From a virus (taxonomy: Duplodnaviria; Caudoviricetes): 64,000 bases of DNA. The notes under the pieces are model-generated. The model saw only the letters and a program-made list of their open reading frames with translations. It was not told the origin of the DNA and did not search any database. Positions 4,759 to 64,000 of this stretch are shown one piece after another. Location: positions 10,408 to 74,407 of IMG/VR virus record IMGVR_UViG_3300013936_000002; one strand, given 5' to 3'. Every line of letters starts with the position of its first letter. Positions within the stretch are counted from its first letter, which is position 1. The position numbers were made by a program, and so were the translations under genes.

Positions 4759-4774
4759 ATTTTTTTATCTCCTT

Positions 4775-5749: not shown

Positions 5750-5787
5750 AATTTAAACTCCTTTCTTTAACATTATAATATAAATAT

Positions 5788-43880: not shown

Positions 43881-43960
43881 AATAAAAAACTGCTCAAAAA
43901 AGTATATAAAAAAGAAATATGCAAATTTTACGATTAGAAAAAATAATCATTTTTAATAAA

Positions 43961-43994
43961 AACTATTTACATTAAATAAAATCAATGATATAAT
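43961..43994 (+). promoter_or_regulatory. Conserved phage promoter
   Basis: aacta-tttaca-17-tataat with TG. Confidence 0.75.
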
Positions 43995-48258: not shown

Positions 48259-48994
48259 ATGGAATTAAACAAAATATATTTAGGAGATGCTTACGAATTA
48301 ATCAAACAAATTCCTGATAAAAGTATTGACTTAATTGTTACTGATCCACCTTATGAAATAAATAGTTTAACAGGTGGTGGTATGTTAAAAGAAAAAAGAA
48401 TAGAAAATTTAATGGACAGTTTAGAAAATGAGAATCTACATATAGGAATTAAAGAAGATATTCTAAACGAATTTATAAGAGTTTGCAAAAAAATAAATGT
48501 TTATATATGGTGCAATAAAACCTTGATTCCTAAGCTATTAGATTTTTTTGTTATCAAGCATAAATGTACATTTGATATAATCACTTGGCACAAAACAAAT
48601 GCAATGCCTTTATGTGGTGGGAAATATTTAACCGATACAGAATATTGCTTATATTTCAAAGATGGAGTAAAACTTAATACAACTTATGATACAGCTAAAA
48701 CTCATTATGAACTACCTATTAATATTCAAGATAAAGCACTTTATTCTCATCCTACTATTAAGCCAATACAAATTATTAAGAACTTAATAACTAACTCAAG
48801 CCTTGAGGGGGGGGGTAGTGCTAGACCCATTTATAGGTTCAGGAACAACAGCTGTTGCATGTAAAGAATTAAATAGACAATTCATAGGTTTTGAATTAAA
48901 TCCAAAGTTTTATGAAATTGCAAACGATAGATTAAATGATGTAACTCAAGTTGATAAAAAGAAAGAAGAACAAGGCTATATGAAATTGTTTTAG
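48259..48994 (+). pseudogene. N4/N6 DNA methyltransferase (beta order), frameshifted at a G9 tract (putative phase-variable OFF state)
   Basis: DLIVTDPPY and HPTIKP in one frame, VLDPFIGSGTT in the +1 frame; junction at G9 48807-48815; G8 joins them. Confidence 0.85.
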
Positions 48995-49006
48995 AAAGGA
49001 AAAAAC

Positions 49007-50537
49007 ATGAAAAAAGTTGATGAAGAACAAATATCTTTATTTAGTATGATATATGATGAATTTAAGATTACAAAACCAATTAGATTAATTGAATTATTTG
49101 CAGGCTATGGAAGTCAATCATTAGCATTAAAATATTTAAATGTTAATTTTGAACATTGGAAAATTGCAGAATGGGCAGTAAAATCAATCATTGCTTATAA
49201 AGATTTACATTTTAGTGAAAATAATCAAGATTATTCCAAAAATTTAAGTTTTGAAGAAATAATTAATTATTTAAACGATTTAGGAATATCAATGGATTAT
49301 AATGAACCTATGAATTTAAAACAAATAAAATCTATGGGTGAAAATAAATGTCGTATGGTATTTAATGATATAAAAGCAAGTAATAATCTTGTTAATATAT
49401 CAAAAGTGAAGGGGGGGGGATTTAAACATTGTTGATAGTGATAAGTTTCAATATATAATGACTTATTCCTATCCATGTTGAAAATGACAAGATTTATCAT
49501 TAGCTGGAAAGCAATTAGGAATGACTAAAGGTAGTGGAACAAGAAGCGGTTTATTATGGGAAGTAGAAAGAATTTTAGATGAATTAAAACAAGATAATAT
49601 TCAAGAAATGCCGATACTCTTAATGGAAAATGTTCCAGAAGTTCATTCTAAAAATAATATTAAAGATTTTAGATTATGGATTCAAAAATTAGAATCCTTA
49701 GGTTATACAAATTTTTGTGAAGATTTAAATGCCAAAAATTATGGAATACCTCAAAATAGAGTTAGAACATTTATGATTTCTATTCCAAAAGAATGTATAT
49801 ATTATTTTCCAAAAAAGAAAAAATTAGATATTTTATTAAAAGATTTATACATTAAAAATGTAGATGAAAAATATTTTTTAAAAAACAAACAAATAAATGA
49901 TATTATCCATTGGAAAGCACAACAAGATCCAATCGAAACAATGGATAAAGTAAATAAAACAGGTATTATACCTATTATAACTACAAGAAGTGGAGACTAT
50001 ACAGCTGGTATGATATTAATACCTATTAAAAATAATACTTCTCAAGGATATGAAATGGCAACATTTGGTGATGGTATTAATATTAGTGGTAGAATGAAAT
50101 ATCAAAGAGGTAATGTGCAGCATGGATTATCTCAAACTTTAACTACTAAAAGTAATGTAGGTATTATTAATGAGTTACAATTACTTGGAAATGCAACAAA
50201 TAAAACATTTAACAATGGAAAAGATATTCATCAACAAGATAGATGTTATAATGATAATTTATTGACAACTATTAATACTCATGTATTTCCATATCATTTA
50301 GATAATTTAAGATTTAGAAGATTGATACCTAAAGAACATTTTAGGTTAATGGGAGTTAAAGATAAAGATTTTGAAAAAATTAAATTAAACCAATCTGACC
50401 AATCATTATATCATTTAGCTGGGGATAGCATTGTTGCAACTTGTTTAATGGGTTTATTTGGACAATTATTAGGAATTAATTGGCAAGATAAATTTAATAT
50501 AAAAGAATGGTTTGATTATTTACCTAAAAAAATTTAA
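49007..50537 (+). pseudogene. C5 cytosine DNA methyltransferase interrupted by a G9 frameshift and a 9-nt stop-containing insert
   Basis: Motif I ELFAGYG, IV TYSYPC/QDLS, VI LLMENV, VIII PQNRVR, IX RRLIPKE.FRLMG, X LAGDSIV; G9 at 49411-49419; TGAAAATGA at 49479-49487. Confidence 0.88.
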
Positions 50538-50565
50538 AAAAGTAAGAAGAAAAGGAGATAAAATT

Positions 50566-50811
50566 ATGTGGATTAGAACACAAGATAGAGAAGAATTAGT
50601 TAATGCTGATAGAGTAAAAAATATATTTATAAATAAATTAATTAAATTAACAAATCCTAGATGGGAAATAAAAGCTGATGAATTAACTTTAGGTGTTTAC
50701 ACTTCTGAAGATAATGCTATTGATGTTTTAGCTTATATTCAAGAATGTATTTATTTAGGCAAAGCTGAAATGAATATGCCATTAGAAAAAGATGGAGAGT
50801 TGTTAAAATAA
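50566..50811 (+). CDS. Hypothetical protein
   Basis: Start at MWIRTQD with AAGGAG RBS. Confidence 0.6.
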   Translation: MWIRTQDREELVNADRVKNIFINKLIKLTNPRWEIKADELTLGVYTSEDNAIDVLAYIQECIYLGKAEMNMPLEKDGELLK

Positions 50812-50812
50812 T

Positions 50813-51295
50813 ATGTTCGAAGAAGAAAAAGAATTTATAGATAATCAAATAAAAGGCATAAATTTATCATTAGATAATGTTAATGATTATGATACTGAAG
50901 ATTATATTGAAGATTTAAATTGTGCATTAAAAACCTTTCAAAGTATAAAAAAGATAATTCTTGATTATGAAAAAGAAAATGAAGAAACAAAAAGTTTCCC
51001 AGAATGTTCAGAACTAGCATATAATGATGAATTGCCTTTAGTAAATACAATATTACAAAGAAACAATGAAATTCTTAGTTCACTTGTACAATTAGATGAT
51101 GTATTACAAAAACTAGATAACAATACGATTGTTGCTGTTTATGATACAAGCAATAAAATATTATATGATGGATCAAAAGAAGATATCTATAAGTCAAATT
51201 TAGTAATTGATAATTTATATATTAATAATATTAAACTTTATGCTGATAAAAACATCAATCCATTTATGTTAATATTAGCAAAAAAATTAAATTAA
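50813..51295 (+). CDS. Hypothetical protein
   Basis: Operon position. Confidence 0.55.
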   Translation: MFEEEKEFIDNQIKGINLSLDNVNDYDTEDYIEDLNCALKTFQSIKKIILDYEKENEETKSFPECSELAYNDELPLVNTILQRNNEILSSLVQLDDVLQKLDNNTIVAVYDTSNKILYDGSKEDIYKSNLVIDNLYINNIKLYADKNINPFMLILAKKLN

Positions 51296-51302
51296 ATAAT
51301 TT

Positions 51303-51351
51303 AAAAAAGTTAAATGATTTTATTTACATTTAACTTTTTTTATTGTATAAT
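51303..51351 (+). promoter_or_regulatory. Fused terminator hairpin / promoter
   Basis: 14-bp stem whose loop and 3' arm carry tttaca-17-tataat. Confidence 0.7.
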
Positions 51352-51380
51352 AAAATCAATAAAAGAAAGGAATTGATAGA

Positions 51381-51926
51381 ATGAAAAAAGTAAAAGTGTT
51401 ATTATATTGTACTAAAGCAAAACCATTTTTGCTTGAGCATAAAACAGATGACAATCAAGTATTATATGTAACTACTGAATTTGGTAGTTTATACTATTGG
51501 AGAATTAATCATAAAAAAGTATTAAATGGTAAAATTGTTGCTGAATGTGAAGTTGAAACCGAAGAAATTAGATTAAGTGAATATACATATTATGATGATT
51601 GTAAGATAGCTTATTTTGATACTCCTACATTACTAAACGGTGAATTATTATACAAAAGTTGTTTAGATAATGGTGAATTAGAAAATTATCTTATAAATCA
51701 AAAAGGGTATGCTTTACATATTAGCAATTTAAGAACATTTGATGAACCAAAAGGGTTATATGAATATAATATAATAAAAGCACCACAAAATATGATGAGA
51801 GTATTTGATGATAATAGAAATAAATATATTTTAATTAGCGTTCAATCTGAATGGTTATGCAAAATCTTAAATGGTGAAAAAACTATTGGAGTTAGAAAAA
51901 AAGTTTTAAAGGAGATGCTAGAATGA
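51381..51926 (+). CDS. ASCH-like domain protein, apparently circularly permuted
   Basis: LNGKIVAE, GYALHISNL..FDEP, KAPQ; the ILISVQSEWLCKILNGEKTI.VR motif is at the C-terminus. Confidence 0.7.
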   Translation: MKKVKVLLYCTKAKPFLLEHKTDDNQVLYVTTEFGSLYYWRINHKKVLNGKIVAECEVETEEIRLSEYTYYDDCKIAYFDTPTLLNGELLYKSCLDNGELENYLINQKGYALHISNLRTFDEPKGLYEYNIIKAPQNMMRVFDDNRNKYILISVQSEWLCKILNGEKTIGVRKKVLKEMLE

Positions 51927-52192
51927 GTAAAGAAATACGAATGGTAACTCTAAATAGAATAAAATACTGCTTATTAAGAATATTTGAAGCAGAAGATGAT
52001 GATATTCCTAATCTTAAAATTATTGCAGCAAATGAAAGAGCAATTATGCATTATTTAAAAGGTTATTCTAAACATGAAAAAGATGAATTATTAAGACTTA
52101 TTCGTTGGACTAATGATGCTAATGCTTCAGAATTAGAAAAACATGGTTGGAGAGTTATAAGAGAGAAAAATAAAAATGAACGAAAAAATTAA
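51923..52192 (+). CDS. Hypothetical protein
   Basis: AAGGAG RBS, ATGA overlap. Confidence 0.55.
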   Translation: MSKEIRMVTLNRIKYCLLRIFEAEDDDIPNLKIIAANERAIMHYLKGYSKHEKDELLRLIRWTNDANASELEKHGWRVIREKNKNERKN

Positions 52193-52546
52193 ACTATACA
52201 AGCAAAGAAAAAAAGAAAAAAAGAAAAAATTAAAATATACAAACAAATAAAAGTTAAAGGAGTTAAATATAAACAAGCTATAGAAGCTGAAAAATTTATT
52301 CACCCTGATTTCACTGATTTAGCAATATTTAAAGATAAAAAGGAAAATGGAATCATTCTTGATATTAAAACTGGATTAGTTGTTGCAATAGCAAAATGGA
52401 AGAAGCAAGTGATTAAAATTTTCAATGACATTTGTGCTGATTCATATTATGAATTTATTAAAACTAAAGAATATCAAAAAATAATTAAAGAATTTAACGA
52501 GCTTGAAGAGTATCATCTAGAATTAAAGGAGATAAAAGAAAAATGA
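52176..52546 (+). pseudogene. Hypothetical gene split by an A-rich tandem repeat (-1 frame needed)
   Basis: ATG frame stops at 52250; a start-less frame runs from 52193 to TGA 52546; G(A)7 G(A)7 G(A)6 repeat between them. Confidence 0.55.
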
Positions 52547-52917
52547 GTAAAACGGATAAAAGCGACAATGAAATTTTACATAGTAGGTTCAATGTAGAAG
52601 TACATTCAAAACACTTTATAAATTATTGTGAAGTAATTGTCTTACCTAATGGAGAAGTAGAATATGCAATCCCTTCACATGAAAGAAAAGCTATTGAGAT
52701 TTTTAAAAGACAATTTAATTTAAGTAATGAAGATTTAAATAATTTATCTAAGGAACTTTCAATAGAATATATTTGTGAAAAATGCCACCTAATAATGTTA
52801 TGGTATGAGTATGCTTTTACACCTATTAAAATAACTCAAGAACAAGTAAATACTTTAAATGAATTAATATCACATAAATGTATAAGTGAAAATATTTGGA
52901 AATATATTTATAAATAA
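52543..52917 (+). CDS. Hypothetical protein
   Basis: AAGGAG RBS; FINYCE...PNG.VEYAIPSH. Confidence 0.6.
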   Translation: MSKTDKSDNEILHSRFNVEVHSKHFINYCEVIVLPNGEVEYAIPSHERKAIEIFKRQFNLSNEDLNNLSKELSIEYICEKCHLIMLWYEYAFTPIKITQEQVNTLNELISHKCISENIWKYIYK

Positions 52918-52922
52918 ATTCT

Positions 52923-53381
52923 ATGAAAGGAAAAATTAAAATAATGAAACATTTTGAATATGAAGATAGATTAACAAAAAAGAAAAACCAAAAAGAAGTA
53001 GAGAAGAAAATATGCGAATCTTTAGGCTTTGATTTAAAAGAAGCACACCTTATTAATGAAGGCAAATATCAAATAAAAGATGATGTTATGATACATAATG
53101 CAATAGATAAGTTAGGTCAATTAGAAGATATAGAGGAAAGACTAGGTATTAAATTGTTAACCTTAATCAAGGCGGTTGATAATAGAATCTATTCTAAAGA
53201 ATATAATGAAATGAGAAAGGTTGATTTAACTCGTCTTGAATTGATACCTGGTTTTCCAATTACTGAGTATGAATATCCTTCCGAAGATTTATGCCTATAT
53301 GATGATGATTTAGAAGAATGTTATTTTTTTAAAGATTATGGTAAAACATGGGCTTTAACAAAAAAGGAGATAAAAAAATGA
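52923..53381 (+). CDS. Hypothetical protein
   Basis: KLGQLEDIEE and DYGKTWALTK motifs familiar from Firmicute phage accessory genes. Confidence 0.6.
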   Translation: MKGKIKIMKHFEYEDRLTKKKNQKEVEKKICESLGFDLKEAHLINEGKYQIKDDVMIHNAIDKLGQLEDIEERLGIKLLTLIKAVDNRIYSKEYNEMRKVDLTRLELIPGFPITEYEYPSEDLCLYDDDLEECYFFKDYGKTWALTKKEIKK

Positions 53382-53608
53382 AATTAAAAGACTTATTAAC
53401 AGGAACAGACATGGAACATTGCAAAATTAGAATTATAGAGGTAAGACCTAAACCTTTGCACAATATAGATATTGCTTATTTATACGATTTTACAAAATAT
53501 CAAATAAAAAATGGAATAGTTCAAGATTATTTAGATTTTAATATTTCAAAAATTAGAACAGATGAAGAAGGTTACATGGTTTTATTTTTAAGCAATGAAG
53601 AAAAATAA
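53378..53608 (+). CDS. Small protein, MKL[KN] paralog family
   Basis: Start at MKLKDLL with AAGGAG RBS. Confidence 0.55.
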   Translation: MKLKDLLTGTDMEHCKIRIIEVRPKPLHNIDIAYLYDFTKYQIKNGIVQDYLDFNISKIRTDEEGYMVLFLSNEEK

Positions 53609-53630
53609 TTATATAAAAGGAGTAAAAATT

Positions 53631-53954
53631 ATGAAATGTAAAAATTGTAATCATCAATATTGTGATAGCTATGAAGAACAAATATATTATTGTATTTTTT
53701 TTGGAGATGAACCAGAAGAGCCATTTTATACTGAAGATGGTTGTAAACTAAAATATAAAGAAGCTAAAAAATTAGAAAGATTATTAGAAAATTGTGATGT
53801 AACTAAAGGTTGGGATGTTGAAGAAAAAGATAGAGAAAATATTTTAAATCAAGTGAATAAAGCACTTGAAGAATATAACAAATATTATAAAAAACTAGAG
53901 GGAAAATATGGAAAGAATATATCAAAAAAAACCACGAAAAATTCAAATGATTAA
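53631..53954 (+). CDS. Cys-containing hypothetical protein
   Basis: MKCKNC..QYC; AAGGAG RBS. Confidence 0.55.
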   Translation: MKCKNCNHQYCDSYEEQIYYCIFFGDEPEEPFYTEDGCKLKYKEAKKLERLLENCDVTKGWDVEEKDRENILNQVNKALEEYNKYYKKLEGKYGKNISKKTTKNSND

Positions 53955-54144
53955 AGGTAGAAGTTATGCAAAATGTGAAAATTGTGGATTAGTAAAAGAA
54001 GATGGGAATGTTATATTATTATTTAATGAAACCAATTATCATTGCAGAAAAACAAATCATATTGTTAAAAGATTATATGCTAATGAAAATAGCTTATGGC
54101 TTTGTAAAGATTGTTTAAATGAGCTAAGAAAGGCAATAAAATGA
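53908..54144 (+). CDS. Zinc-ribbon-like small protein
   Basis: CENCG and LCKDC pairs. Confidence 0.55.
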   Translation: MERIYQKKPRKIQMIKGRSYAKCENCGLVKEDGNVILLFNETNYHCRKTNHIVKRLYANENSLWLCKDCLNELRKAIK

Positions 54145-55253
54145 TATATGGTTATGCAAGAGTTTCAACTAAAGAACAAAATTTAGATAGACAACTTGAA
54201 GAATTTAAAAACTATAATATTGATAAAATCTATTGTGAAAAGAAATCAGGAAAGAATTTTAAAGATAGAGATGAATATCAAAAATTATTAAAAAAACTAA
54301 AGAAAGGTGATTTGTTAATTATCATGTCTATTGATAGATTAGGTAGAAATTATGAGGAAATTTTAAATCAATGGAGAATAATTGTTGAAGATAAAAAATG
54401 TGATATTCAAGTTTTAGACTTTCCAATGTTAAATACTAGAAATGGTGGTTATGGACTTGAAGGTAAATTCTTATCAAATATCATACTTCAAGTGTTAGCT
54501 TATGTCGCCGAAAAGGAAAGGCAAAAAATAAAAGAAAGACAAGCTCAAGGAATAGCTATTGCTAAAGCAAAAGGTATTCATATGGGTAGACCTAATTTGG
54601 TGTTTCCACCTAATGCTGATGAAGTGCTTAATAAATATGTTAATAATGAAATATCTAAAGAAGAAGCTATGACATTGTTAAAATGTGCTAATTCAACATT
54701 TTATAAAATGTTACAAATAAAATCATTAAAGAGAAAAAAGATATTAAAGAAAAAATTAAAAAAATATAAACATCCGAAAATTATAATTAAAAAATATAAA
54801 CATTCTAAAATTATAATTAAAAAATATAAGTATCCTAAAACTATAAAAAAAAGATATAAAAAACCTCGTATCGGAATACAAGCTAAAAAATACAAACATC
54901 CTAAAATTAAAGTTATAGCAAAAAAATATAGAAAACCTAAAATTAAAGTTGTAATTAAGAAAAATAAAAAACCTAAAATTATAAGAAAAAAATATAGAAA
55001 ACCTAAAATTAAATTTGAACCAATAATTGTTGTGAATCAAGTGGTTTATTTAAAATCTAAATCAGATTATAAAATAGTAGCTTATAAAAAGAATGGTGAA
55101 AAAGTTGAAGCAAAAACCTTTTTATTATTAAGTAAAAAATTATACACAAATACATCAACTATAAAAAATTATATGAAAGGTAAAAACACTTATTTAAATG
55201 ATGATATAGAAAAAATAGAAAAAGTTTATTATGAAAAGGAGACAAAGAAATGA
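54141..55253 (+). CDS. Small serine recombinase (resolvase/invertase) with Lys-rich repeat extension
   Basis: YGYARVST.EQ, GDLLII.SIDRLGR, ER..I.ERQ..GIA.AK..G...GRP. Confidence 0.9.
   Translation: MIYGYARVSTKEQNLDRQLEEFKNYNIDKIYCEKKSGKNFKDRDEYQKLLKKLKKGDLLIIMSIDRLGRNYEEILNQWRIIVEDKKCDIQVLDFPMLNTRNGGYGLEGKFLSNIILQVLAYVAEKERQKIKERQAQGIAIAKAKGIHMGRPNLVFPPNADEVLNKYVNNEISKEEAMTLLKCANSTFYKMLQIKSLKRKKILKKKLKKYKHPKIIIKKYKHSKIIIKKYKYPKTIKKRYKKPRIGIQAKKYKHPKIKVIAKKYRKPKIKVVIKKNKKPKIIRKKYRKPKIKFEPIIVVNQVVYLKSKSDYKIVAYKKNGEKVEAKTFLLLSKKLYTNTSTIKNYMKGKNTYLNDDIEKIEKVYYEKETKK
54759..55010 (+). repeat. Eight degenerate coding tandem repeats (KKY[KR]xPKI)
   Basis: 30-36-nt units such as aaaaaatataaacatccgaaaattataatt. 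Confidence 0.85.
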
Positions 55254-55414
55254 TAGAAATTGAAGTATTAAATGCTAATACGCATAAAAATGAAATTTAT
55301 CATTTTAATAATAGTAAAGATGCAAAAATGTTTTTAAAAAATAAAACATTACTATTAGTAGGAATTAGAGGGTATAGTTCACAAGAAGAATTGAACTATA
55401 TATTAGGTAATTAA
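55250..55414 (+). CDS. Small hypothetical protein (54 aa), absent from the ORF track
   Basis: AAGGAG RBS, ATGA overlap. Confidence 0.5.
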   Translation: MIEIEVLNANTHKNEIYHFNNSKDAKMFLKNKTLLLVGIRGYSSQEELNYILGN

Positions 55415-55416
55415 TT

Positions 55417-56757
55417 ATGAAGTTATATTATGAAGAAGAAAACGCATTTAAATTATATGAGGGTAAAATGCAAGATGTTTTACCAACATTAAAAGAAAAG
55501 TCAATTGATAGTATTGTATGTGATCCACCTTATGAGATTAATTTTATGCAAAATGGGTGGGATAATTCATCAGTTGCATTTCAAAAAGAAACTTGGCAAC
55601 ATTGTTTTAGAGTTTTAAAACCAGGTGGATATTTATTAGCTTTTGGTGGAACTAGAACATATCATAGAATAGCATGTGCTATTGAAGATGCAGGATTTGA
55701 GATTAGAGATTGTATTATGTATTTATATGGTAGTGGTATGCCAAAAGGTCAAAATGTAGGTTTAATGATTGATAAAAAAAGAGGTGTAGATAATAGAACA
55801 GGAAATGTTGTTGCTGGTGTTCATAACTCTGATAGTTTAGTTAACATAGCATCTTCTTGTAAACCTATATACGAAGAAAGACAAGCACAAAATGAGTATG
55901 CTGGGTATAATACAGCGTTAAAACCAGCTTATGAACCAGTTATTGTTGCAAGAAAACCAGTCGAAGGAACGGTGGTTGAAAACATCTTAAAATATGGTGT
56001 AGGAGCAATGAATATAGATGAATGTAGAGTTGGTATAACTGGTGGTGTAAAAACATTAGGTAATATTCCAAATAAAGAAAGAAACGAATCAATTACACCA
56101 ATTATGGATCGAAAGATATTAGGTCAAGTCGCTTTAGATAAAGGTAGATATCCTGCTAATGTGATAACTGATGGTTCAGATGAAGTAGCTGCTAATATGC
56201 CAATAAATGAATCACATTATAGTAAACCAAATTTTGAACCATGTAAAAATCAAAATAGTGCTGTTAAAATTACTTCAATAAATTATAAAAGTGGAGGTAT
56301 TCATTTTGAAGATAGTGGGTCAGCTTGTAGATATTTCTATACAGCTAAAACAAGTTCAAAAGATAGAGATGAAGGACTTGATATATTTGAAGATGAAAAA
56401 GTATGGACTCAAGATGGTAGATTTAATAGTTTTGATATTTATAAAGATAATGCACCACGAAAAAATATTCATCCAACGGTTAAACCAACAACATTAATGC
56501 AATATTTAGTTCGTTTAGTAACTCCTAAAGGTGGAACAGTACTTGATCCATTTATGGGGTCAGGATCAACTGGAAAAGCAACTATGTTTGAGAATAGAGA
56601 AAGAAATGCTAATTACAAATTTATAGGTGTTGAAATGACTGAAAAATATTTACCAATATGTAAAGCACGAATTGATTATGCACTTCATAAATTTGAATAT
56701 GATATAGAAAAAGAAAAATTAGAAGATGAAAAAAATGGAGTTGTTAGACTTTTCTAA
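55417..56757 (+). CDS. N4/N6 DNA methyltransferase (intact, long variable region)
   Basis: DSIVCDPPY, LKPAYEP, HPTVKP..LM.YL, VLDPFMGSGSTG. Confidence 0.92.
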   Translation: MKLYYEEENAFKLYEGKMQDVLPTLKEKSIDSIVCDPPYEINFMQNGWDNSSVAFQKETWQHCFRVLKPGGYLLAFGGTRTYHRIACAIEDAGFEIRDCIMYLYGSGMPKGQNVGLMIDKKRGVDNRTGNVVAGVHNSDSLVNIASSCKPIYEERQAQNEYAGYNTALKPAYEPVIVARKPVEGTVVENILKYGVGAMNIDECRVGITGGVKTLGNIPNKERNESITPIMDRKILGQVALDKGRYPANVITDGSDEVAANMPINESHYSKPNFEPCKNQNSAVKITSINYKSGGIHFEDSGSACRYFYTAKTSSKDRDEGLDIFEDEKVWTQDGRFNSFDIYKDNAPRKNIHPTVKPTTLMQYLVRLVTPKGGTVLDPFMGSGSTGKATMFENRERNANYKFIGVEMTEKYLPICKARIDYALHKFEYDIEKEKLEDEKNGVVRLF

Positions 56758-56783
56758 AAGATTAATTGAAAAATTAATCTTTT
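56756..56783 (+). terminator. Intrinsic terminator
   Basis: aaaagattaatt-gaaa-aattaatctttt plus T run. Confidence 0.8.
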
Positions 56784-56808
56784 TTTATTTTTTTAATTTT
56801 TTAATAAA

Positions 56809-56842
56809 AACTATTTACATTTAGCTATTAAAGATGTATAAT
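56809..56842 (+). promoter_or_regulatory. Conserved phage promoter
   Basis: aacta-tttaca-17-tataat. Confidence 0.75.
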
Positions 56843-56874
56843 TTACTTGTAAAAAGATAAAGGAGAACACAAAT

Positions 56875-57594
56875 ATGGAAATTAAAGTTTTACAAGAAAG
56901 AATTAATAAGAAAGAAGCACAAGTTCAAAAACTTGAAAATAAAATTGCTAAATGGGAAGCAAATAAAACTTCTGAAAAAGCGTTTTTAAAAGAACTTGGT
57001 GATTGGCTTGAAGCTTATCCTGATAGAGAAGAAAAGTGGAGACAAGAATGGCTTGGAAAATGCAATAATGAAATTAGATGGGCTAGTAGAGATTTGGAAG
57101 AAGTAAAAACAACATTAGAAAAATATTACAATATGTTAGAAGTTGAAAAACAAAAAGAAAATTCAATAAATGAATTACCTGAATTATTTAATGATTTACA
57201 AAAATTATTAATTGAAAAATGGGATGAGTTTGACATCAATTATAGAGATAGATTAATAAGCGAATATAAAACATTAGGTCATACTGAATTTTATAAAAAT
57301 CATTCTTATGCTTGTTATGATAAAATGTATGAAAGTGATGGACAAATCCACGAAAATAATGTTAAAGCATCAAAAGAAGTTATACTTGATTTAATTAATA
57401 GAGTTTCATTTATTACAGGTGAAATTAAAGATTATAGTCAACTTAGATTAAATAGAGATAACAATGGTTGGTTAATCTTAAATGGTAATGTAATTGGAAA
57501 TAAAGGAACTGCTAAAGTTGAAAGTATCTATGCTGGTGGTTATAATATTCAAAGATTACATATCAGAGTATTAGTCAACAAGGTTAACGCTTAA
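56875..57594 (+). CDS. Hypothetical protein (coiled-coil N-terminus)
   Basis: AAGGAG RBS; C-terminal A.VESIYAGGYNIQRLHIR. Confidence 0.65.
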   Translation: MEIKVLQERINKKEAQVQKLENKIAKWEANKTSEKAFLKELGDWLEAYPDREEKWRQEWLGKCNNEIRWASRDLEEVKTTLEKYYNMLEVEKQKENSINELPELFNDLQKLLIEKWDEFDINYRDRLISEYKTLGHTEFYKNHSYACYDKMYESDGQIHENNVKASKEVILDLINRVSFITGEIKDYSQLRLNRDNNGWLILNGNVIGNKGTAKVESIYAGGYNIQRLHIRVLVNKVNA

Positions 57595-57623
57595 CCTTAA
57601 AAAGCGTTCTTATTAAGGAGAAA

Positions 57624-57884
57624 ATGAAGATGGAAAATAATATTTTAACAAAAGAAGAAAAAGAATATTTAAGTTTTGTTATTAAACCTTTTAGAAATAG
57701 AATTAAATTTATAAAAAAGACAGATTTAATCGTAAAAAATAAAAATTATAATTATATTCAAATTGGTTTAAAAGTAAATGGTTGTACAACCGAATATATG
57801 GAATTTCCAACATTTGAAGAAAATACAATGTATAAAAACATGAAACTTTATAAAAAGTATACTTTAGATGAATTATACTTATAA
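57624..57884 (+). CDS. B-domain hypothetical protein
   Basis: EKEYL..VIKPFR ... MY..M....YTL.EL, paralog of the 47563 C-terminus. Confidence 0.6.
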   Translation: MKMENNILTKEEKEYLSFVIKPFRNRIKFIKKTDLIVKNKNYNYIQIGLKVNGCTTEYMEFPTFEENTMYKNMKLYKKYTLDELYL

Positions 57885-57901
57885 AAAAAATAAAGGAGAA
57901 A

Positions 57902-58153
57902 ATGAAAATGAAAATGAAATTGAAATATAGTTATATAATTATGCAAGGAGTCAAGACAGCTTCTGGTTGTGGTGATTGTAATATCATGGCTTATACTAGC
58001 ACTTTAAAAGAAGCAAGAAAATCATTTAACAAATTAAAAAAAGATACTAAAGGATGGATCAAGAATGGAAATAATAGTTATTTAGAAACAGAGATTGTAA
58101 ATATTAATGATGGTTGTTTTAATCTTATTGATTGCTTTAAAATTAATTTATAA
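57902..58153 (+). CDS. Small hypothetical protein (tandem paralog 1)
   Basis: YII.QG...G.GD ... A.K.FNK.K.D..GW shared with next gene. Confidence 0.6.
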   Translation: MKMKMKLKYSYIIMQGVKTASGCGDCNIMAYTSTLKEARKSFNKLKKDTKGWIKNGNNSYLETEIVNINDGCFNLIDCFKINL

Positions 58154-58164
58154 GGAGAAATAAA

Positions 58165-58407
58165 ATGAAAAAATATGAATATATAATTTTTCAAGGGTTT
58201 GTAAGTCCAATGGGTAATGGTGATATTTATCCTATACATACGGAAACAACATTTTCTAATGCTAAAAAGACTTTTAATAAAATAAAAAATGATTTTACTG
58301 GTTGGACTAATAAATCTAAAAATGGTTGTTTGATTACTTATATTGAAAGAGTTGCTGAAGAAGGCAATAATAAAATTATTGATTACCATGAAAAATATTT
58401 TAAATAA
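58165..58407 (+). CDS. Small hypothetical protein (tandem paralog 2)
   Basis: As above. Confidence 0.6.
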   Translation: MKKYEYIIFQGFVSPMGNGDIYPIHTETTFSNAKKTFNKIKNDFTGWTNKSKNGCLITYIERVAEEGNNKIIDYHEKYFK

Positions 58408-58475
58408 TTTTTATAACAATCTTATAAAACTATGTTATTATTATAAGTAGTAAAAAAGATTAAATATTTTCTAAA

Positions 58476-58509
58476 AACTATTTACATTTAACTTATAACA
58501 TGGTATATT
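58476..58509 (+). promoter_or_regulatory. Conserved phage promoter
   Basis: aacta-tttaca-17-tatatt. Confidence 0.7.
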
Positions 58510-58537
58510 AATATCATAAGAAAGGAAATGATTAAAT

Positions 58538-58789
58538 ATGTTAAAAGAATTAACTGAAAATGAAAAAGTTATAAAATTTCAAAAGCAAGAAGGAGATGTA
58601 TATGACATATATATTGGTGTAGCAAATGGAATAAGTGGTTTTATTCGTACAAATGAAAATTATGTAATGATTTGGTATGATTGGTATATAGAACATAAAG
58701 ATACTTATTCATTACAACAAATTAAAGATTTAATTTCAAAACATTTCAAAGTAGATGTTATTGAAGTTGAAGATGAAGAAGATGCTTAA
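58538..58789 (+). CDS. Hypothetical protein
   Basis: First ORF after the promoter, GAAAGG RBS. Confidence 0.55.
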   Translation: MLKELTENEKVIKFQKQEGDVYDIYIGVANGISGFIRTNENYVMIWYDWYIEHKDTYSLQQIKDLISKHFKVDVIEVEDEEDA

Positions 58790-58831
58790 TTAAAATATTA
58801 AATTATTATAAAGGAGGAAAATATTAAGATT

Positions 58832-59512
58832 ATGGCAACAAAAGAAGAAAAAAGATTAGCTTTAGCTGAACATTTAGGAATTGATGAAAGTGAATTGAAT
58901 GATGTTGATTATGATGAAAACACATTTGAATATGATGGTATGGAATATTTAGTATTAGATGATAAAGAAGCAGATGATGCAACTTTTACTGATATTGAAA
59001 ACATGATTGATGATATGGGTCTTAAAGCATTTAGTAAAGATATGCAAGATTGGATTTTAGAAAATGCAATTGATTATGACTTTGAAGAAGCATATCGTGA
59101 AATGGAAGAAACTTATGTAGAAGACATTGAAAGCGAAGGATCAAGAGAATTTGACAATCGTTTAATTGAAGAAATGTATGATGCTAATATTTTAACTGAT
59201 GATGACTTTGAAGAAGATGAAGATGGTGAAATCGACCATCAAAGATTAAAAGATGATGTAGATTTATATGATAAAAAAGAAGAATATGTTGATTATTTAT
59301 TAGATGACATTTCAGATTTTAGAGAAGAATTTATTGAAGAATTTGGTATTAATGAAGTATTAAGATTAGTTAAAGAAGGTTATGCTAGTTTAGATACATC
59401 AGCTATTGTTGATGAAGTTATTAGATGGTATGGTCGTGAACCAAGTCTTGCTAGTTATGATGGTGAAGAAAGAGAATTAGATAATGGTTTATTTGCATAT
59501 AGAGTTGGTTAA
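58832..59512 (+). CDS. Highly acidic protein (candidate DNA mimic)
   Basis: 76 of 226 residues D/E by manual count; AAGGAGG RBS. Confidence 0.65.
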   Translation: MATKEEKRLALAEHLGIDESELNDVDYDENTFEYDGMEYLVLDDKEADDATFTDIENMIDDMGLKAFSKDMQDWILENAIDYDFEEAYREMEETYVEDIESEGSREFDNRLIEEMYDANILTDDDFEEDEDGEIDHQRLKDDVDLYDKKEEYVDYLLDDISDFREEFIEEFGINEVLRLVKEGYASLDTSAIVDEVIRWYGREPSLASYDGEERELDNGLFAYRVG

Positions 59513-59544
59513 ACTCTATATGCTTATTTTTAAAGGAAAAAATA

Positions 59545-59859
59545 ATGGATAGAAAAACAAATAAAATATTAAAAAAATTTTTTAATTTAAAAGCAAAACA
59601 AATGTTGTGTAAATTATATTTAAGTAGCAAATTGTTTAAGGCTTGTAAAAATAAATCTAAAGTTGAGAAAACCTATGAAAAAATTGATATGAAATTATAT
59701 ATTTTTATTAAAGCTCATATTAACACACTTTCTCAATTTGATTTAGAAAAAGAAGCTGAAAATTATCAAATGACTATTAAAGACCAAATGCGATTTTCAA
59801 AAAGATATTTTGGTGAAAAATATGATATTAACAATTTGTTGGAGGCAATTGAAATATGA
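59545..59859 (+). CDS. Hypothetical basic protein
   Basis: ATGA overlap with metK. Confidence 0.5.
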   Translation: MDRKTNKILKKFFNLKAKQMLCKLYLSSKLFKACKNKSKVEKTYEKIDMKLYIFIKAHINTLSQFDLEKEAENYQMTIKDQMRFSKRYFGEKYDINNLLEAIEI

Positions 59860-60980
59860 TTTATGAAATTGGAAAAATAAAAAAATATAAAAATTATTCT
59901 TATACATTTACAAATGAAATAGTATTTAGAGGTCATCCTGATAAAGTATGCGACCAAATAGCAGCAGCTATTGTTGATGAATATTATAAATATGATAAAA
60001 ATGTAAGAGCAGGAATTGAAGTAGTTGGTGGTAAAAATAAACTATTCATTACTGGTGAATTAACATCAAGTGTTGAATTAGATATTGAAAAAATTGCTAA
60101 AAGAGTTTTAAGAGATTGTGGTTATAATTCTAATTTAGAGATTATAATTAATATTTCTAAACAATCTTCTAATATTAATCAAGGAGTAGATAAAGGAGAG
60201 ACATTAGGTGCTGGCGATCAAGGAATAATGTTTGGTTATGCTACTAATGAAACTTCGTTCTTATTACCTAAAGCAATGTTAATATTACAAGACTTTGCTA
60301 AAGCATATGATGAAATAAGAAAAGAAAATAGTAATGTATTTTATTCAGATGGTAAAGCACAAATAACTGGAGAATATGATGAAAATGATAATTTATTACA
60401 AATTACAACATTTAATGTTTCTTATCAAAATTGTGAAACAAAGCGACAAACAACTGATGCTTTATTATTAGATAAAATTATTTCCATATGTGATTATTAT
60501 AAAGTTCCATTATGCAATGTAATTATCAATAATACTGGCAAATTTAAAATTGGTGGTTTTGAGGCTGATAGTGGATTGACTGGTAGAAAGATAGTTGTTG
60601 ATACATATCAAGGATTTTGTAAAGTTGGTGGTGGTAATTTAAATGGTAAAGACTTTACAAAAGTTGATGTAACAGGAACTTATGCTGCTAGAGAATTAGC
60701 TACTTTAATTCTTAGAGTAAATCAAAAAAAATATCATATTGTTGAAACTCAATTGTCTTATATTATAGGAAATGAACTTCCATCATCAATTAGTATTAAA
60801 ATAAATGGTAAATATATTTCTTACAATCAAGCAAGCGAATTATTAGAAAAAGTTATTCAACAAAATAATTGCAAGTCGTTATATGAGCTTTATTCAGTTG
60901 ATAATATTATTAAACGATTAACTCAAAATGTTTGTCTTGAAGAAAATGCTAAATTTGGTCATATTTATGCTTATCATTAA
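59856..60980 (+). CDS. metK: S-adenosylmethionine synthetase
   Basis: GHPDKVCDQI, GAGDQGIMFGYA, DGKAQIT, ADSGLTGRKIVVDTY, GGG...GKD.TKVD. Confidence 0.95.
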   Translation: MIYEIGKIKKYKNYSYTFTNEIVFRGHPDKVCDQIAAAIVDEYYKYDKNVRAGIEVVGGKNKLFITGELTSSVELDIEKIAKRVLRDCGYNSNLEIIINISKQSSNINQGVDKGETLGAGDQGIMFGYATNETSFLLPKAMLILQDFAKAYDEIRKENSNVFYSDGKAQITGEYDENDNLLQITTFNVSYQNCETKRQTTDALLLDKIISICDYYKVPLCNVIINNTGKFKIGGFEADSGLTGRKIVVDTYQGFCKVGGGNLNGKDFTKVDVTGTYAARELATLILRVNQKKYHIVETQLSYIIGNELPSSISIKINGKYISYNQASELLEKVIQQNNCKSLYELYSVDNIIKRLTQNVCLEENAKFGHIYAYH

Positions 60981-60985
60981 TTTAT

Positions 60986-61009
60986 AAAAAGTTGATATTT
61001 CAACTTTTT
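60986..61009 (+). terminator. Intrinsic terminator
   Basis: aaaaagttga-tatt-tcaacttttt. Confidence 0.75.
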
Positions 61010-61029
61010 ATTTTATCAAAAATAAAATG

Positions 61030-61063
61030 AACTATTTACATTTAAGTTTAATCATGATATTAT
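61030..61063 (+). promoter_or_regulatory. Conserved phage promoter
   Basis: aacta-tttaca-17-tattat. Confidence 0.65.
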
Positions 61064-61094
61064 TTTTATATAAAAATAAAGGAGAAAAAATAAC

Positions 61095-61205
61095 ATGGCA
61101 TTTAAGATAGTATTTATAAGTGGATTAATACTAACAAGCATTGTTTGGTTAATCACATTAGTTTATGTTTTAACTTGGGGTAAAATAAAATGGAAGAAAA
61201 GATAA
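61095..61205 (+). CDS. 36-aa single-pass membrane peptide, absent from the ORF track
   Basis: MAFKIVFISGLILTSIVWLITLVYVLTWGKIKWKKR; AAGGAG RBS. Confidence 0.55.
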   Translation: MAFKIVFISGLILTSIVWLITLVYVLTWGKIKWKKR

Positions 61206-61513
61206 AACGAGTAATTTATACAATTTATTTTGACCATATTCATGTAGAAGAATCTTATAAAATAAAAAAAGAAAAAGAAATGAGATATGTTTTAAGTAAG
61301 ATTATGATAAGTGAAAACTATAAGAAATATGGTTATAGTAGATCAATGAAAAGTTATTTAGCCGAATGGAAATTTCACAACTTTTGTTATAATTTAGGTT
61401 TTGCAAAAGACCATACAGCTGAAGTTGATTTTAATAAAGAGTTTGGAAATACTTTACAAGAAAAATTAGAAAGAATTATTTATGCAATAATTAGTATATT
61501 TATAAGAAAATAA
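61190..61513 (+). CDS. Hypothetical protein
   Basis: EWKFHNFCY.LG...T..VDF motif. Confidence 0.55.
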   Translation: MEEKIKRVIYTIYFDHIHVEESYKIKKEKEMRYVLSKIMISENYKKYGYSRSMKSYLAEWKFHNFCYNLGFAKDHTAEVDFNKEFGNTLQEKLERIIYAIISIFIRK

Positions 61514-61524
61514 GGAGAGATAAA

Positions 61525-62535
61525 ATGAAATTAGATACTAAGTTGATAAAGGAAACAAAAGAGCTTAAAAACAATGTTTTTGTTGGCAGCCAATTAATAA
61601 GTTTTGATGATGATGAAACAGTTGCTATTGTAACAATTTTAAATGAAGAAATGGAAGAATTAGGTGATAGAAGTTTTGGTATTGATTTAAATACATTTAG
61701 ACTTTTAAAATCTTTAGATGAATGTGATATTGAATATGATGATTTTTCAAATCAATTAATCATTAAAATTGGTAAAAATAAAAAATATAAAACTAAAACA
61801 ATTAAACAATCTATTCCAGCTTTAATTGAAAGCGAGTTTACAGGAAATATTGTTATTGATGGTTATAAATTACAAACTGCAAAATCATTTACAGCAACAA
61901 CTGAAAGTAGACCTATTTTAACAGGTGTAGCTATTACTAATAATAAAAACATTTTTGCAAGCGATAGTTATAAAGCATATAGATATTTAGCAAGTGATGA
62001 AGAACCAATAACTACAATTGTTGTTCCATCATTATATTTAAGTTTAATTAATTGTAACAAAGATGTTGAAATAAGCTATAGCGATAAAGTGATTTGTGTT
62101 ATTGAAGAAAATAGATTTACTTATGGTAGATTATTATCAGGAGAATATCCATTAAAACCAATTAATAGTTTCTTTGATAATAATGTTTTAATTGATATAA
62201 ACAAATTAGATTTCCAATATGATGATATTTTAGAAAATATTAATTTATCAAAAAATGTTGGTGATGATAATGGAAAAATTAAACCAAGATTATTATTAGA
62301 AGGAACTTATTTTAAAGTCGAAAGTGCAAGTATTTATGAAGCAAACATTAAAGTAAGTTGGAATGAAGAAAGAAAAGGTTATCATTTATTATTTGATTTA
62401 ACATTAGCTAAAGAGTTATTCCAATTTGCAAAAAAATTAAATGGTAATATTTATATTAAAGAAATGGGAAGTGCATCTCAATTACTTATTGTAAATCAAC
62501 AAGAATCAATGCTTTATTGTTCATTAAGGGGTTAA
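61525..62535 (+). CDS. dnaN: DNA polymerase sliding clamp (beta clamp-like)
   Basis: ESRPILTGV, ASDSYK, RLLSGEYP correspond to DnaN conserved motifs; 336 aa. Confidence 0.8.
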   Translation: MKLDTKLIKETKELKNNVFVGSQLISFDDDETVAIVTILNEEMEELGDRSFGIDLNTFRLLKSLDECDIEYDDFSNQLIIKIGKNKKYKTKTIKQSIPALIESEFTGNIVIDGYKLQTAKSFTATTESRPILTGVAITNNKNIFASDSYKAYRYLASDEEPITTIVVPSLYLSLINCNKDVEISYSDKVICVIEENRFTYGRLLSGEYPLKPINSFFDNNVLIDINKLDFQYDDILENINLSKNVGDDNGKIKPRLLLEGTYFKVESASIYEANIKVSWNEERKGYHLLFDLTLAKELFQFAKKLNGNIYIKEMGSASQLLIVNQQESMLYCSLRG

Positions 62536-62536
62536 T

Positions 62537-63205
62537 ATGGATTATATAAAAGAATTAGAAAAAAAATTATCTAAAGAAGATATTGAAATAGCAAAATCTG
62601 AAAATTGTTTAGAACAATGTAATCAATTACAAAAAGATATTGAAAATGAAATTTTTAATAATCCAAAAAGTGAAATTTATCAGGATCAAGCTACTTATGA
62701 TAATTTTATAAATTATATTAATAATATAAAATTATTAAATACTAAATATCATGAAAAAGAAAAAACAACAGATTCAATATTAGATAATCTTGTTGCAAAA
62801 AAGAATGTAGATAAACCTAAAAAACAACCTAAAGTAAATATACAAAAGTTTTCTGAAACACAACAAAAATATTTAGATGTTTTTGATAAAATGATAAAAG
62901 GCTTTTATAACGAAGTTTATAATCGCTATGAAAAAGAAATTAATAATTTTAATAAAGATTTAAACGCTTATAAAGAAAAACATAAAAATGATTTATTTAG
63001 AACTTATGAAAGCAGAACTGAATTAGATAATATTTATGCAAATTATTCAAAAGATGTTTCAGATGGTTTAACACTTGAAAAAGTAAAATCATCTTTAGAA
63101 AATTATGAAAAGACTAAAAGAGAAGAATTATTAAAAATTATTAATGCTGATGAAAAAACAATTAAAGATTTTTTTAAGAAAATATATTCTTCATTTAAAT
63201 TATAA
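62537..63205 (+). CDS. Hypothetical helical protein
   Basis: Operon position. Confidence 0.55.
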   Translation: MDYIKELEKKLSKEDIEIAKSENCLEQCNQLQKDIENEIFNNPKSEIYQDQATYDNFINYINNIKLLNTKYHEKEKTTDSILDNLVAKKNVDKPKKQPKVNIQKFSETQQKYLDVFDKMIKGFYNEVYNRYEKEINNFNKDLNAYKEKHKNDLFRTYESRTELDNIYANYSKDVSDGLTLEKVKSSLENYEKTKREELLKIINADEKTIKDFFKKIYSSFKL

Positions 63206-63238
63206 ATGTTATAATTAAAGAAAGGAGATTATTAATCT

Positions 63239-63613
63239 ATGAATAAATATTTAGTAAAAAATAGATATGATTATTCTTGTTGCTTTATTACTCAAGCTAA
63301 TAATGTTGAAGATGTCATATCACAATTAAAATCAATAAATAATAAGATTAATATTAATGAATGGATTATAACACCTTTTAATTATGATGATGAAATAAAA
63401 AAATATTTAGTTTATTTTCAATTAGTTCCAAGATTTAAAATTCCAATTTTCTTAGATAATATATTAACAATCTATGAAAATGTAAATGCTACTTCTGAAA
63501 AAGAAGCTATAACAAAAATTATAGAAAAATATCAGCTTGATTATCAAATAAAAAAAATTATATTTTGTAAACAAATTCCACATCTATGGGAATTAGATAA
63601 ACCTAATATTTAA
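63239..63613 (+). CDS. Hypothetical protein with two internal repeats
   Basis: KYLV...A.[NS]..[DE][VA]I twice. Confidence 0.55.
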   Translation: MNKYLVKNRYDYSCCFITQANNVEDVISQLKSINNKININEWIITPFNYDDEIKKYLVYFQLVPRFKIPIFLDNILTIYENVNATSEKEAITKIIEKYQLDYQIKKIIFCKQIPHLWELDKPNI

Positions 63614-63619
63614 AAAATT

Positions 63620-63667
63620 AAAAAGTTAAATGATTTTATTTACATTTAACTTTTTTTATTATATAAT
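63620..63667 (+). promoter_or_regulatory. Fused terminator hairpin / promoter (copy 2)
   Basis: 41 bp identical to 51304-51344; tttaca-17-tataat. Confidence 0.7.
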
Positions 63668-63699
63668 TATTTTAAAGGAGAGATAAACTTATTTGATAT

Positions 63700-63882
63700 A
63701 TGAATGAAAAAGAGAAAACAAATTTATTAAATGAATTAATATCTAATATGATAGATATTGGAGCTTTAATTGAAACTGAAAATGTTGAAAGATATAATCA
63801 TTTAAGTTTTGGTGAAAATTTAACTCAAAACCAATTTAAATTATTAAAATTAAAAATTGAAAGATTTTTAACTGAAGAATAG
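63700..63882 (+). CDS. Small hypothetical protein
   Basis: First ORF after the promoter. Confidence 0.5.
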   Translation: MNEKEKTNLLNELISNMIDIGALIETENVERYNHLSFGENLTQNQFKLLKLKIERFLTEE

Positions 63883-63892
63883 GAGAGATAAC

Positions 63893-64000
63893 ATGAAATT
63901 AAACAAAATATATTTAGGAGATGCTTACGAATTAATCAAACAAATTCCTGATAAAAGTATTGACTTAATTGTTACTGACCCACCTTATGAGTTTGTACCT
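63893..64000 (+). CDS. N4/N6 DNA methyltransferase, 3' truncated by the window edge
   Basis: MKLNKIYLGDAYELIKQIPDKSIDLIVTDPPY; AGGAGAG RBS. Confidence 0.85.
   Translation, partial: MKLNKIYLGDAYELIKQIPDKSIDLIVTDPPYEFVP

Follow-up and report, generated by a model that had tools for sequence, protein, structure and literature searches.

The 64,000-nt stretch of DNA analysed here (the window) spans positions 10408-74407 of a 74,407-bp phage genome, IMG/VR record IMGVR_UViG_3300013936_000002, which carries 99-bp direct terminal repeats and is judged complete. Its last 16 kb encode four DNA methyltransferases, MT1 to MT4, all of which had been recognised in a preliminary description of this DNA. 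Judged by sequence, MT1 is a convincing phage contingency gene: a run of nine G residues (G9) within the coding sequence puts it out of frame, and a near-identical relative with eight (G8) encodes the complete enzyme. The adjacent gene, MT2, encodes a C5 cytosine methyltransferase and also has a G9 run, but it is interrupted a second time and is more complicated than the preliminary description proposed. The region is best explained as the early, DNA-metabolism arm of a complete phage of about 74 kb from gut-type metagenomes. This phage would methylate its own DNA, with MT1 as a contingency gene, MT2 interrupted, and metK, the gene for S-adenosylmethionine (SAM) synthetase, as an accessory gene; we consider this explanation, taken as a whole, to be on balance probable. 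The gene identities, reading frames, tract polymorphism, purifying selection, co-location with inteins and absence of the metK block from relatives on which it draws are directly seen. To these it adds, by inference, a slippage origin of the polymorphism, an anti-restriction role, docking on a sliding clamp and an endonuclease origin of the second lesion in MT2.

The G tract of MT1

The tract of MT1 is situated between DPPY (motif IV) and FxGxG (motif I). The order of motif IV before motif I is common to MT1, MT3 and MT4, which share the pattern DPPYE ... DPF(I/M)GSG(T/S)T. At G9 the frame of MT1 reads ...NSSLEGGG and meets an early stop, while removal of one G gives ...LEGGVVLDPFIGSGTT, which is motif I. 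Related sequences are referred to here by L, G or P numbers, and alleles as ON or OFF. The genome studied has the OFF allele, and its PF01555 match covers profile positions 1-182 of 221 only (35.7 bits). The natural G8 allele of L152 is ON: it has an uninterrupted 327-aa gene with the full domain, matched over positions 1-220 of 221 with 107.5 bits (cut-off 26.7). L152 is 99.7% identical to the genome studied over 5 kb, with two mismatches and two gaps. L010 is also ON with G8, as are L009, L138 and L153 with G7 and changed flanks. In the 54% identical MT1 homolog of L011 the tract is G8 and the gene is OFF, as G9 is needed there. The ratio of non-synonymous to synonymous divergence (pN/pS) is ~0.03-0.1 on both sides of the MT1 tract. 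MT1 shows three features of a contingency locus: an over-long homopolymer, a change of ±1 that toggles full and truncated product, and a length that differs between near-identical genomes.

We propose that the poly-G run, placed between the catalytic and SAM-binding halves of MT1, slips during replication, so that G8 would give the complete enzyme and G9, as in the genome studied, a truncated one. A phage population would then contain methylated and unmethylated subpopulations for the MT1 site. The most likely job of the four orphan methyltransferases would be self-methylation of phage DNA against host restriction, with the intact MT3 and MT4 presumably always made.

The open reading frame (ORF) of MT1 extends upstream of the methyltransferase core, and the residues encoded by 48010-48258 form a Cys-rich extension paralogous to the ORF immediately upstream (47563-48006). 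The Cys-rich module (C.C..6..C..C.F.YIDC) and the KPFR..I module that follows it recur as repeat families D7 and D8. Copies occur as the separate ORF 47563-48006, as the N-terminal fusion of MT1 and, in part, in a small ORF at 57624-57884.

Length variation and selection at both tracts

The preliminary description placed two methyltransferase genes behind G9 tracts. Both tracts are there, but they lie inside the coding sequences of MT1 and MT2 (Table 1). They are the only G/C runs of at least 8 in the whole 74-kb genome, where runs of at least G7 give 7 overlapping matches against 0.16 expected from shuffled sequences (~40x). Both put their gene out of frame in the genome studied, and G8 restores the frame in both. 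Besides the G9 tracts, the only G/C runs of at least 6 in the window are a C6 (43600-43605) and a C7 (43833-43839), which lie in an ORF-free stretch of ~600 nt at 43365-43990.

As in MT1, the tract of MT2 differs in length among relatives. It is G9, and OFF, in the genome studied, L152, L153 and L244. It is G8, reading to the catalytic Pro-Cys, in L009, L010, L138, L154, L015, L018 and L243, and G7, again OFF, in L014. In L017 the run is synonymously broken as AAAGGGGGTGAT, which encodes the same amino acids without a long run and reads to Pro-Cys. L014 (G7) and L015 (G8) are 99.86% identical apart from the MT2 tract, and the tract also differs within one species (L243 with G8 versus L244 with G9). 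Two pairs of identical sequences, L243 with L246 and L014 with L016, were each counted once. Invariant or artefactual tracts had been named beforehand as part of the outcome that would refute the proposed switchable methylation arsenal; in the assemblies MT1 has G9 in the genome studied and G8 in the 99.7% identical L152, and MT2 has G7, G8 or G9 in relatives. By sequence, then, the tracts are neither invariant nor obviously artefactual, and slippage is the probable origin of their length polymorphism.

Selection on the sequences around the tracts is purifying. Between lineages, every segment flanking the two tracts has a pS of 0.14-0.52 and a pN of 0.005-0.09, and pN/pS is ~0.03-0.2 in both halves of MT1 and MT2. 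The best explanation for a run of 8-9 G that persists across such divergence at 25% G+C is selection for the run as such. Scans of metagenome and viral DNA with the tract and its flanks gave matches that were nearly all due to chance, in unrelated DNA, plus one new relative.

A further G9 was observed in a 7.8-kb viral fragment, L011, at positions 4375-4383, inside a small C5-like methyltransferase gene (FEQSG...FFPC...ENP) that adjoins the MT1 homolog. It lies between motif I and motif IV, as in MT2, and is out of frame, needing G8. In L011 the MT1 homolog needs G9 and its C5-like neighbour needs G8, so errors, if any, would not all be in one direction.

Long A/T runs stay intact in large genes, one contig has 121x coverage, and ON alleles occur in nature. 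All of this argues against the alternative that the tract lengths are sequencing or assembly artefacts, or the result of neutral drift in decaying genes, which would make MT1 and MT2 pseudogenes. This alternative does account for both genes being out of frame in the assembly of the genome studied, for MT1 looking split in three more contigs of the same species (two of them identical to each other) and for the additional lesion in MT2, and it is helped by the error-prone sequencing of homopolymers. It sits badly with a tract that is kept across a synonymous divergence of 0.3-0.4 in a genome of 25% G+C, with the presence of a tract at the corresponding position of a homolog of 54% identity, and with strong purifying selection on either side of the tracts. 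We therefore regard it as very improbable, and prefer the reading of MT1 as a contingency gene.

A second lesion in MT2

MT2 is encoded in three pieces: an N-terminal piece with motif I, a piece from the tract to the Pro-Cys of motif IV, and a piece from QDLSLAG onward with motifs VI-X and the target-recognition domain. The motifs FAGYGS, YPC, ENVP, QNRVR and GDS are all present, but not in one continuous frame, the reading being interrupted once at the tract and again by two stops behind PC. MT2 matches TIGR00675 and NF045953 (“C5 MTase N-terminal subunit”), in both cases below the cut-off. Removal of one G from the tract gives ...KVKGGDLNIVDSDKFQYIMTYSYPC, i.e. motif IV, where intact homologs read KVKGKDL...SFPCQDLSLAG.

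The two stops belong to a 9-nt insertion, TGA AAA TGA, that the preliminary description missed. Directly after it the sequence continues with CAA GAT TTA..., encoding QDLSLAG, and intact homologs lack the nine nucleotides. All relatives of the lineage that were examined carry the insertion, as TGACAATGA or TGAAAATGA. With a double stop after the catalytic Cys, slippage at the tract alone cannot give full-length MT2 under standard decoding. The idea of four methylation states from two independent switches cannot stand in that form, as MT2 is not turned on by slippage alone.

The genetic code is standard: TGA is found in frame in no long gene and ends 13 ORFs of at least 100 codons; an alternative code with TGA as Trp or Gly was rejected as an explanation of the MT2 stops on the same grounds. 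The corresponding insertion in L018 is 8 nt long, so readthrough cannot work there. No suppressor tRNAs were found in the window.

Other genes are found next to MT2 homologs in relatives. A 346-aa PAPS-reductase-like gene lies between the MT1 and MT2 homologs of the complete relative G001 (L009:3725-4765), and a gene of this kind (PF01507) is also situated upstream of the MT2 homolog in L017. In L018 a GIY-YIG endonuclease gene (4332-5192) lies just downstream of the MT2 homolog with the 8-nt insertion.

Insertions and inteins in motif IV

Insertions of 6-9 nt within motif IV occur in 9 of 78 viral loci with homologs of MT2, and another, in L018, was found separately. They can be grouped by the residue they follow: P (TAACTT in L032, TAAACA in L036, TAGTCA in L050 and TAAGGCG in L061), C (TGANAATGA in the lineage of the genome studied and TGAATAGT in L018), Q (TGACAT in L086), and S or L (7 nt in L022 and L034). 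All lie within ~7 codons of the junction between Pro and Cys (P|C). In nine of the ten insertion lineages the first inserted codon is a stop in the incoming frame, and the canonical codons continue immediately behind the insertion. In a tblastn comparison of ~85 loci, the frame breaks and stops within the first 260 residues mapped to two places, the tract site and residues 146-159. Two loci deviated: L026, with a stop close to its N-terminus, and L073, with a large gap.

In many homologs the residues TYLLTY, immediately ahead of SFPC, are encoded by a (TTAC)n/(CTTA)n run, and in two loci the frame is broken inside the (TTAC)n run (L046 near 2440-2470 and L079 near 2430-2470). The MT2 family may here have another type of repeat switch.

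Six of 80 homologs from bacterial and archaeal genomes (contigs of metagenome-assembled genomes, MAGs) carry an intein of ~370 residues exactly at P|C, with the Pfam domains Intein_splicing (PF14890), Hint_2 (PF13403) and LAGLIDADG_3 (PF14528). The junctions read ...YSFP|CFT...VHN|C(Q/T)DLS in L180, L199, L206, L213 and L225; the intein of L162, which starts at a contig end, has the C-terminal junction only. The residue at position +1 of the intein is the catalytic Cys. These inteins are seen in homologs, the window itself having none. The small insertions would cluster where they do because motif IV is the homing site of an endonuclease-bearing intein, and any insertion at P|C should destroy the endonuclease target. 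The 9-nt insertion of MT2 is most likely an endonuclease-escape or endonuclease-scar allele. Its origin as the footprint of a deleted intein was rejected, the inserted bases being unlike the intein ends (TGY... / ...CAYAAY).

The small insertions may spread by gene conversion. This is suggested by a synonymous divergence that is lower in the central patch of the gene than in its flanks, by L018, which has the same tract and flanks despite an overall identity of 49%, and by P0010, a recombinant with an intact patch. Literature searches turned up neither stop-bearing mini-insertions nor stop codons or bypass in motif IV of C5 methyltransferases, and no description of endonuclease escape by a stop-first insertion of 6-9 nt that breaks the host gene.

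MT2 could nevertheless be functional, with both tracts as working switches, if the ribosome hopped over the insertion of 8-9 nt or if the enzyme were made in two pieces. In such a short stop-hop the ribosome would leave UGU, land on the near-matching UGA and continue from CAA, yielding the canonical PCQDLS (junction peptide SYPCQDLSLAGK). A split enzyme would consist of an N-terminal subunit ending in Pro-Cys and a C-terminal subunit, and two-polypeptide C5 enzymes and fragment complementation are known (PMC3404938). The coding sequences offer several signs of function. The two halves of MT2, and likewise the 11 codons that separate the first ATG from the second stop, change mostly synonymously (three synonymous changes and one non-synonymous), and the clade with insertions at P|C keeps CQD(L/M)SxAG downstream through many synonymous changes, with no start codon. 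C-terminal frames are open in five specificity variants. Selection of this kind could, however, predate a recently spread insertion, given the low synonymous divergence of the central patch and the P0010 recombinant. The insertions are 6, 7, 8 or 9 nt long, and so are not bound to multiples of three, and their stop-first form in nine of ten cases also favours function. The take-off codon and the triplet preceding the resumption codon agree at 2-3 positions in 6 of 9 lineages, against ~1.4 lineages expected by chance, although codon matching is poor in the P|C clade, and the structure of the RNA around the site is not above that of shuffled sequences (z -1.2 to +0.1). No natural in-frame stop-hop is known according to a review (PMC5009743). 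For the split form, the stop and a TTG start overlap in L018 (TTGA), as in translational coupling, and the N-terminal fragment matches the NCBIfam subunit model named above with 1e-12, but in the genome studied QDLS is not preceded by an in-frame start, nor ATG 49521 by a good ribosome-binding site. In our judgement a functional MT2 is rather unlikely, and it is similarly doubtful that the stop-first insertions of some ten lineages are maintained functional elements that arose as endonuclease escape and are tolerated by means of a hop or a split enzyme. If they were functional, the upstream poly-G run would gate the N-terminal piece in the phage studied; a hop would be the first natural stop-hop known to us.

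We retain the explanation of a self-methylating phage with a switchable MT1 and an interrupted MT2, while recognising several points that weigh against it. All tract lengths are assembly consensus calls, and a homopolymer may be miscalled in any single contig. The anti-restriction role would follow from what is established for phage orphan methyltransferases. The purifying selection on MT2 and its open C-terminal frames in five target-recognition variants fit a plain scar poorly, and random repair would not give insertions in which the stop codon so regularly comes first.

MT3, MT4 and the sliding clamp

The remaining methyltransferase genes are intact. MT3 is matched by the PADLOC models for type II and orphan methyltransferases, and is a more distant β-class enzyme than the paralogs MT1 and MT4. 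MT4, described earlier as truncated by the window edge, is indeed cut there, but the gene is complete, as the genome carries it past the window end and across the terminal repeat. Its 313-aa product is paralogous to that of MT1 and differs from it in the middle region. The gene has no G tract, and it matches PF01555 over positions 1-220 of 221 with 108 bits (measured on the identical copy L243:15062-16000).

Table 1. Position and character of the features discussed (window coordinates unless stated otherwise).
Feature	Coordinates	Strand	Remarks
MT1, β-class N6/N4 DNA methyltransferase	48010..48994	+	PF01555; core from Met 48259; ORF open from 48010
G9 tract in MT1	48807..48815	+	G8 or G11 in frame
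MT2, C5 cytosine methyltransferase in three pieces	49007..50537	+	PF00145
G9 tract in MT2	49411..49419	+	G8 reads through to catalytic Pro-Cys
9-nt insertion TGA AAA TGA in MT2	49479..49487	+	between catalytic Cys codon and motif IV Gln codon
Repeated promoter-like element TTTACA-17-TATAAT	51323..51351	+	others at 45502, 56814, 58481, 61035, 63639
Serine recombinase/invertase-like protein	54141..55253	+	PF00239; phrog_125 DNA invertase
MT3, intact β-class N6/N4 methyltransferase with large insert	55417..56757	+	PF01555, 111.7 bits; ends ...VVRLF
Acidic protein	58832..59512	+	34% D+E, pI 4.1
MetK, S-adenosylmethionine synthetase	59856..60980	+	PF00438, PF02772, PF02773, all above cut-offs
β sliding clamp homolog, DnaN-like, three domains	61525..62535	+	phrog_947, 1e-9
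MT4 start	63893..64000	+	continues over terminal repeat into genome positions 100-933

The dnaN-like clamp gene of the preliminary description is borne out by structure prediction, and we consider its product a real β-clamp homolog on the strength of the predicted model. The model (pLDDT 90.4) matches DnaN of Streptococcus, Eubacterium and E. coli over its whole length in Foldseek (E 3e-18, TM 0.73-0.77, ~390 columns). The protein is weak by sequence, with a Pfam score below the cut-off and no match among PDB sequences.

The β-clamp-binding peptide has the consensus QL[SD]LF, is often C-terminal, and binds a pocket of the clamp. MT1 and MT4 end in YMKLF and MT3 in VVRLF, i.e. all three in (K/R)LF, and among 145 mechanically called ORFs the only other endings in LF belong to three short, spurious-looking ones. 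These tails resemble the LF anchor of the clamp-binding motif, with the leading Q absent in that register. MT1, MT3 and MT4 could dock on the clamp through their C-termini and so be coupled to the replication fork, a tentative proposal that we hold with less than even confidence.

metK and the neighbouring genes

The presence of metK, noted earlier, is confirmed by matches to all three MetK domains. The gene matches phrog_1569 at 1.8e-84; against TIGR01034 it scores 255.6 bits, short of the equivalog threshold of 309.4. Homologs were found in 135 phage records, most of them Streptococcus prophages. In one contig of the same species (L249:4978-5036) a single nucleotide is missing from an A7 run early in metK, and the gene caller finds only the last 250 residues.

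About 5.4 kb past the window end, at genome positions 5312-6244 (L253:5312-6244), a 311-aa protein carries an S-AdoMet_lyase domain (PF23780; 36.5 bits where the cut-off is 28, over profile positions 2-84 of 133). It has no match among PDB sequences, and its PHROG matches are uninformative. A SAM synthetase together with a possible SAM lyase in one phage would be odd.

The acidic protein was described as lying just upstream of metK. It does lie upstream, but a 104-aa basic ORF separates the two genes, and a terminator-like hairpin is found at the acidic gene (59495-59523). Its suggested role as a DNA mimic is a guess from composition that gains no support from structure, as the confident model (pLDDT 94.9) does not match solved mimics. 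Foldseek gave no PDB match (best E 1.9), and a VIA wide search gave no clear fold match, the best (Z 6.1) being to a kinase. The protein has 72 homologous clusters and belongs to no Pfam, PHROG or PADLOC family.

The recombinase carries a C-terminal array of 30-nt tandem repeats (54747-55011) encoding basic 10-residue units of the type KKYKHPKIII. No convincing flanking inverted repeats or invertible segment were found nearby.

Six promoter-like elements (Table 1) belong to the direct-repeat families D10, D11 and D17. They appear to divide the region into separate transcription units rather than one expression unit. The total from a consensus scan is not above that of shuffled sequences, and the argument rests on the repeated extended sequence.

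Distribution in related phages

The genome has a G+C content of ~25%. Its large terminase is at most 27% identical to any entry among 50,697 phage records, and a megablast search of the same records with 8.8 kb gave no match. Homologs of its genes are found in contigs from gut and rumen metagenomes and in MAGs. Contigs of the same species keep the whole gene order, including metK and the 54-64 kb block. In contrast, neither of two complete relatives with the MT1-MT2 cassette, G001 and G002, has metK, MT3, the invertase, the acidic protein or the clamp (the positive control for this test of gene absence was G000). We conclude that metK is an accessory gene of the phage species, presumably for SAM supply, and not an obligate partner of the switchable genes.

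The preliminary description took the 16 kb to be one co-evolved anti-restriction programme, with constitutive and stochastic methylation, a SAM supply, methylation coupled to the clamp and an acidic mimic. A coherent, co-inherited programme is not supported, as two complete phages have the cassette but none of metK, MT3, the clamp and the acidic protein. Its individual parts also fit poorly: one contig of the same species has a frameshift at an A-run of metK, the SAM-lyase-domain protein misfits a simple supply model, and the acidic protein has neither a known mimic fold nor a PADLOC or Pfam family. On the other side stand the conservation of components and gene order within the species, the same extended promoter motif before each unit, the (K/R)LF termini alongside a β-clamp gene, and the position of metK near an adenine methyltransferase gene in Erysipelothrix phage phi1605. 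We consider such a programme improbable; the region is instead largely a neighbourhood of accessory genes.

Comparison with known systems

Phase-variable methyltransferases are a textbook bacterial strategy. The evidence that phages phase-vary their own anti-restriction enzymes is thin, consisting of a remark on a Bordetella phage and recent work on receptor-binding and other genes. The natural ON, OFF and locked alleles in public metagenomes make the switching of a phage methyltransferase directly testable. MT1 resembles the bacterial phasevarions (mod genes of Haemophilus, Neisseria, Helicobacter and Moraxella, and the poly-G genes of Campylobacter) in having a homopolymer within the coding sequence where ±1 toggles the frame, and the tracts described here share with them lengths that differ between near-identical genomes. 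Unlike phasevarion genes, MT1 is a phage-borne orphan with no restriction partner seen, and its likely benefit would be to hedge the methylation of phage DNA, not to regulate host genes.

For phages, bioRxiv 10.1101/2025.10.21.683753 cites poly-G tracts in the receptor-binding genes of Fletchervirus phages of Campylobacter (Sorensen et al. 2021), a poly-G run remarked in the methylase gene of a Bordetella phage (written BBP-1), and contingency loci recently claimed for T2/T4. Hypermutable homopolymers that create subpopulations, as proposed for MT1 and MT2, have thus been described in phage genes, and a methylase gene with poly-G has precedent. The present case differs from the earlier ones in that the tracts are found in two adjacent methyltransferases of different classes and are conserved across diverged homologs, and that natural ON, OFF and “locked” alleles are documented, from metagenomes only.

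Phage MetK proteins (phrog_1569; Streptococcus prophages and phi1605) are, like the one described here, three-domain synthetases encoded in an early or replication module. The metK of phi1605 has an adenine methyltransferase gene two genes away, so at least one annotated phage pairs metK with a methyltransferase. The metK of the genome studied is 36-38% identical to known phage MetK, is specific to one phage species and is unlinked to the tract-bearing cassette.

The intein-homing catalytic motif that has collected tiny stop-bearing insertions in many lineages under purifying selection may matter more than the switch. These insertions point to a new form of homing-endonuclease escape or to an undescribed recoding or split-enzyme arrangement. 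They recall the homing sites and resistant alleles of LAGLIDADG inteins, in that relatives have an intein at P|C and the mini-insertions fall within ~7 codons of it. As in the bypassing of T4 gene 60 and in synthetic stop-hops, MT2 has a stop directly after the last sense codon and canonical coding then resumes, and in the MT2 family the non-coding gap need not be a multiple of three. Unlike in gene 60, the gap is 6-9 nt instead of 50, no stimulatory structure was found, the codon match is partial, and the arrangement is known from the genes alone. The C5 enzymes M.AquI and M.EcoHK31I are able to work as two chains, as MT2 would if it were split. Natural splits known from C5 enzymes fall within or close to the variable region or motif IX, whereas the break in MT2 is in the catalytic loop, after Pro-Cys.

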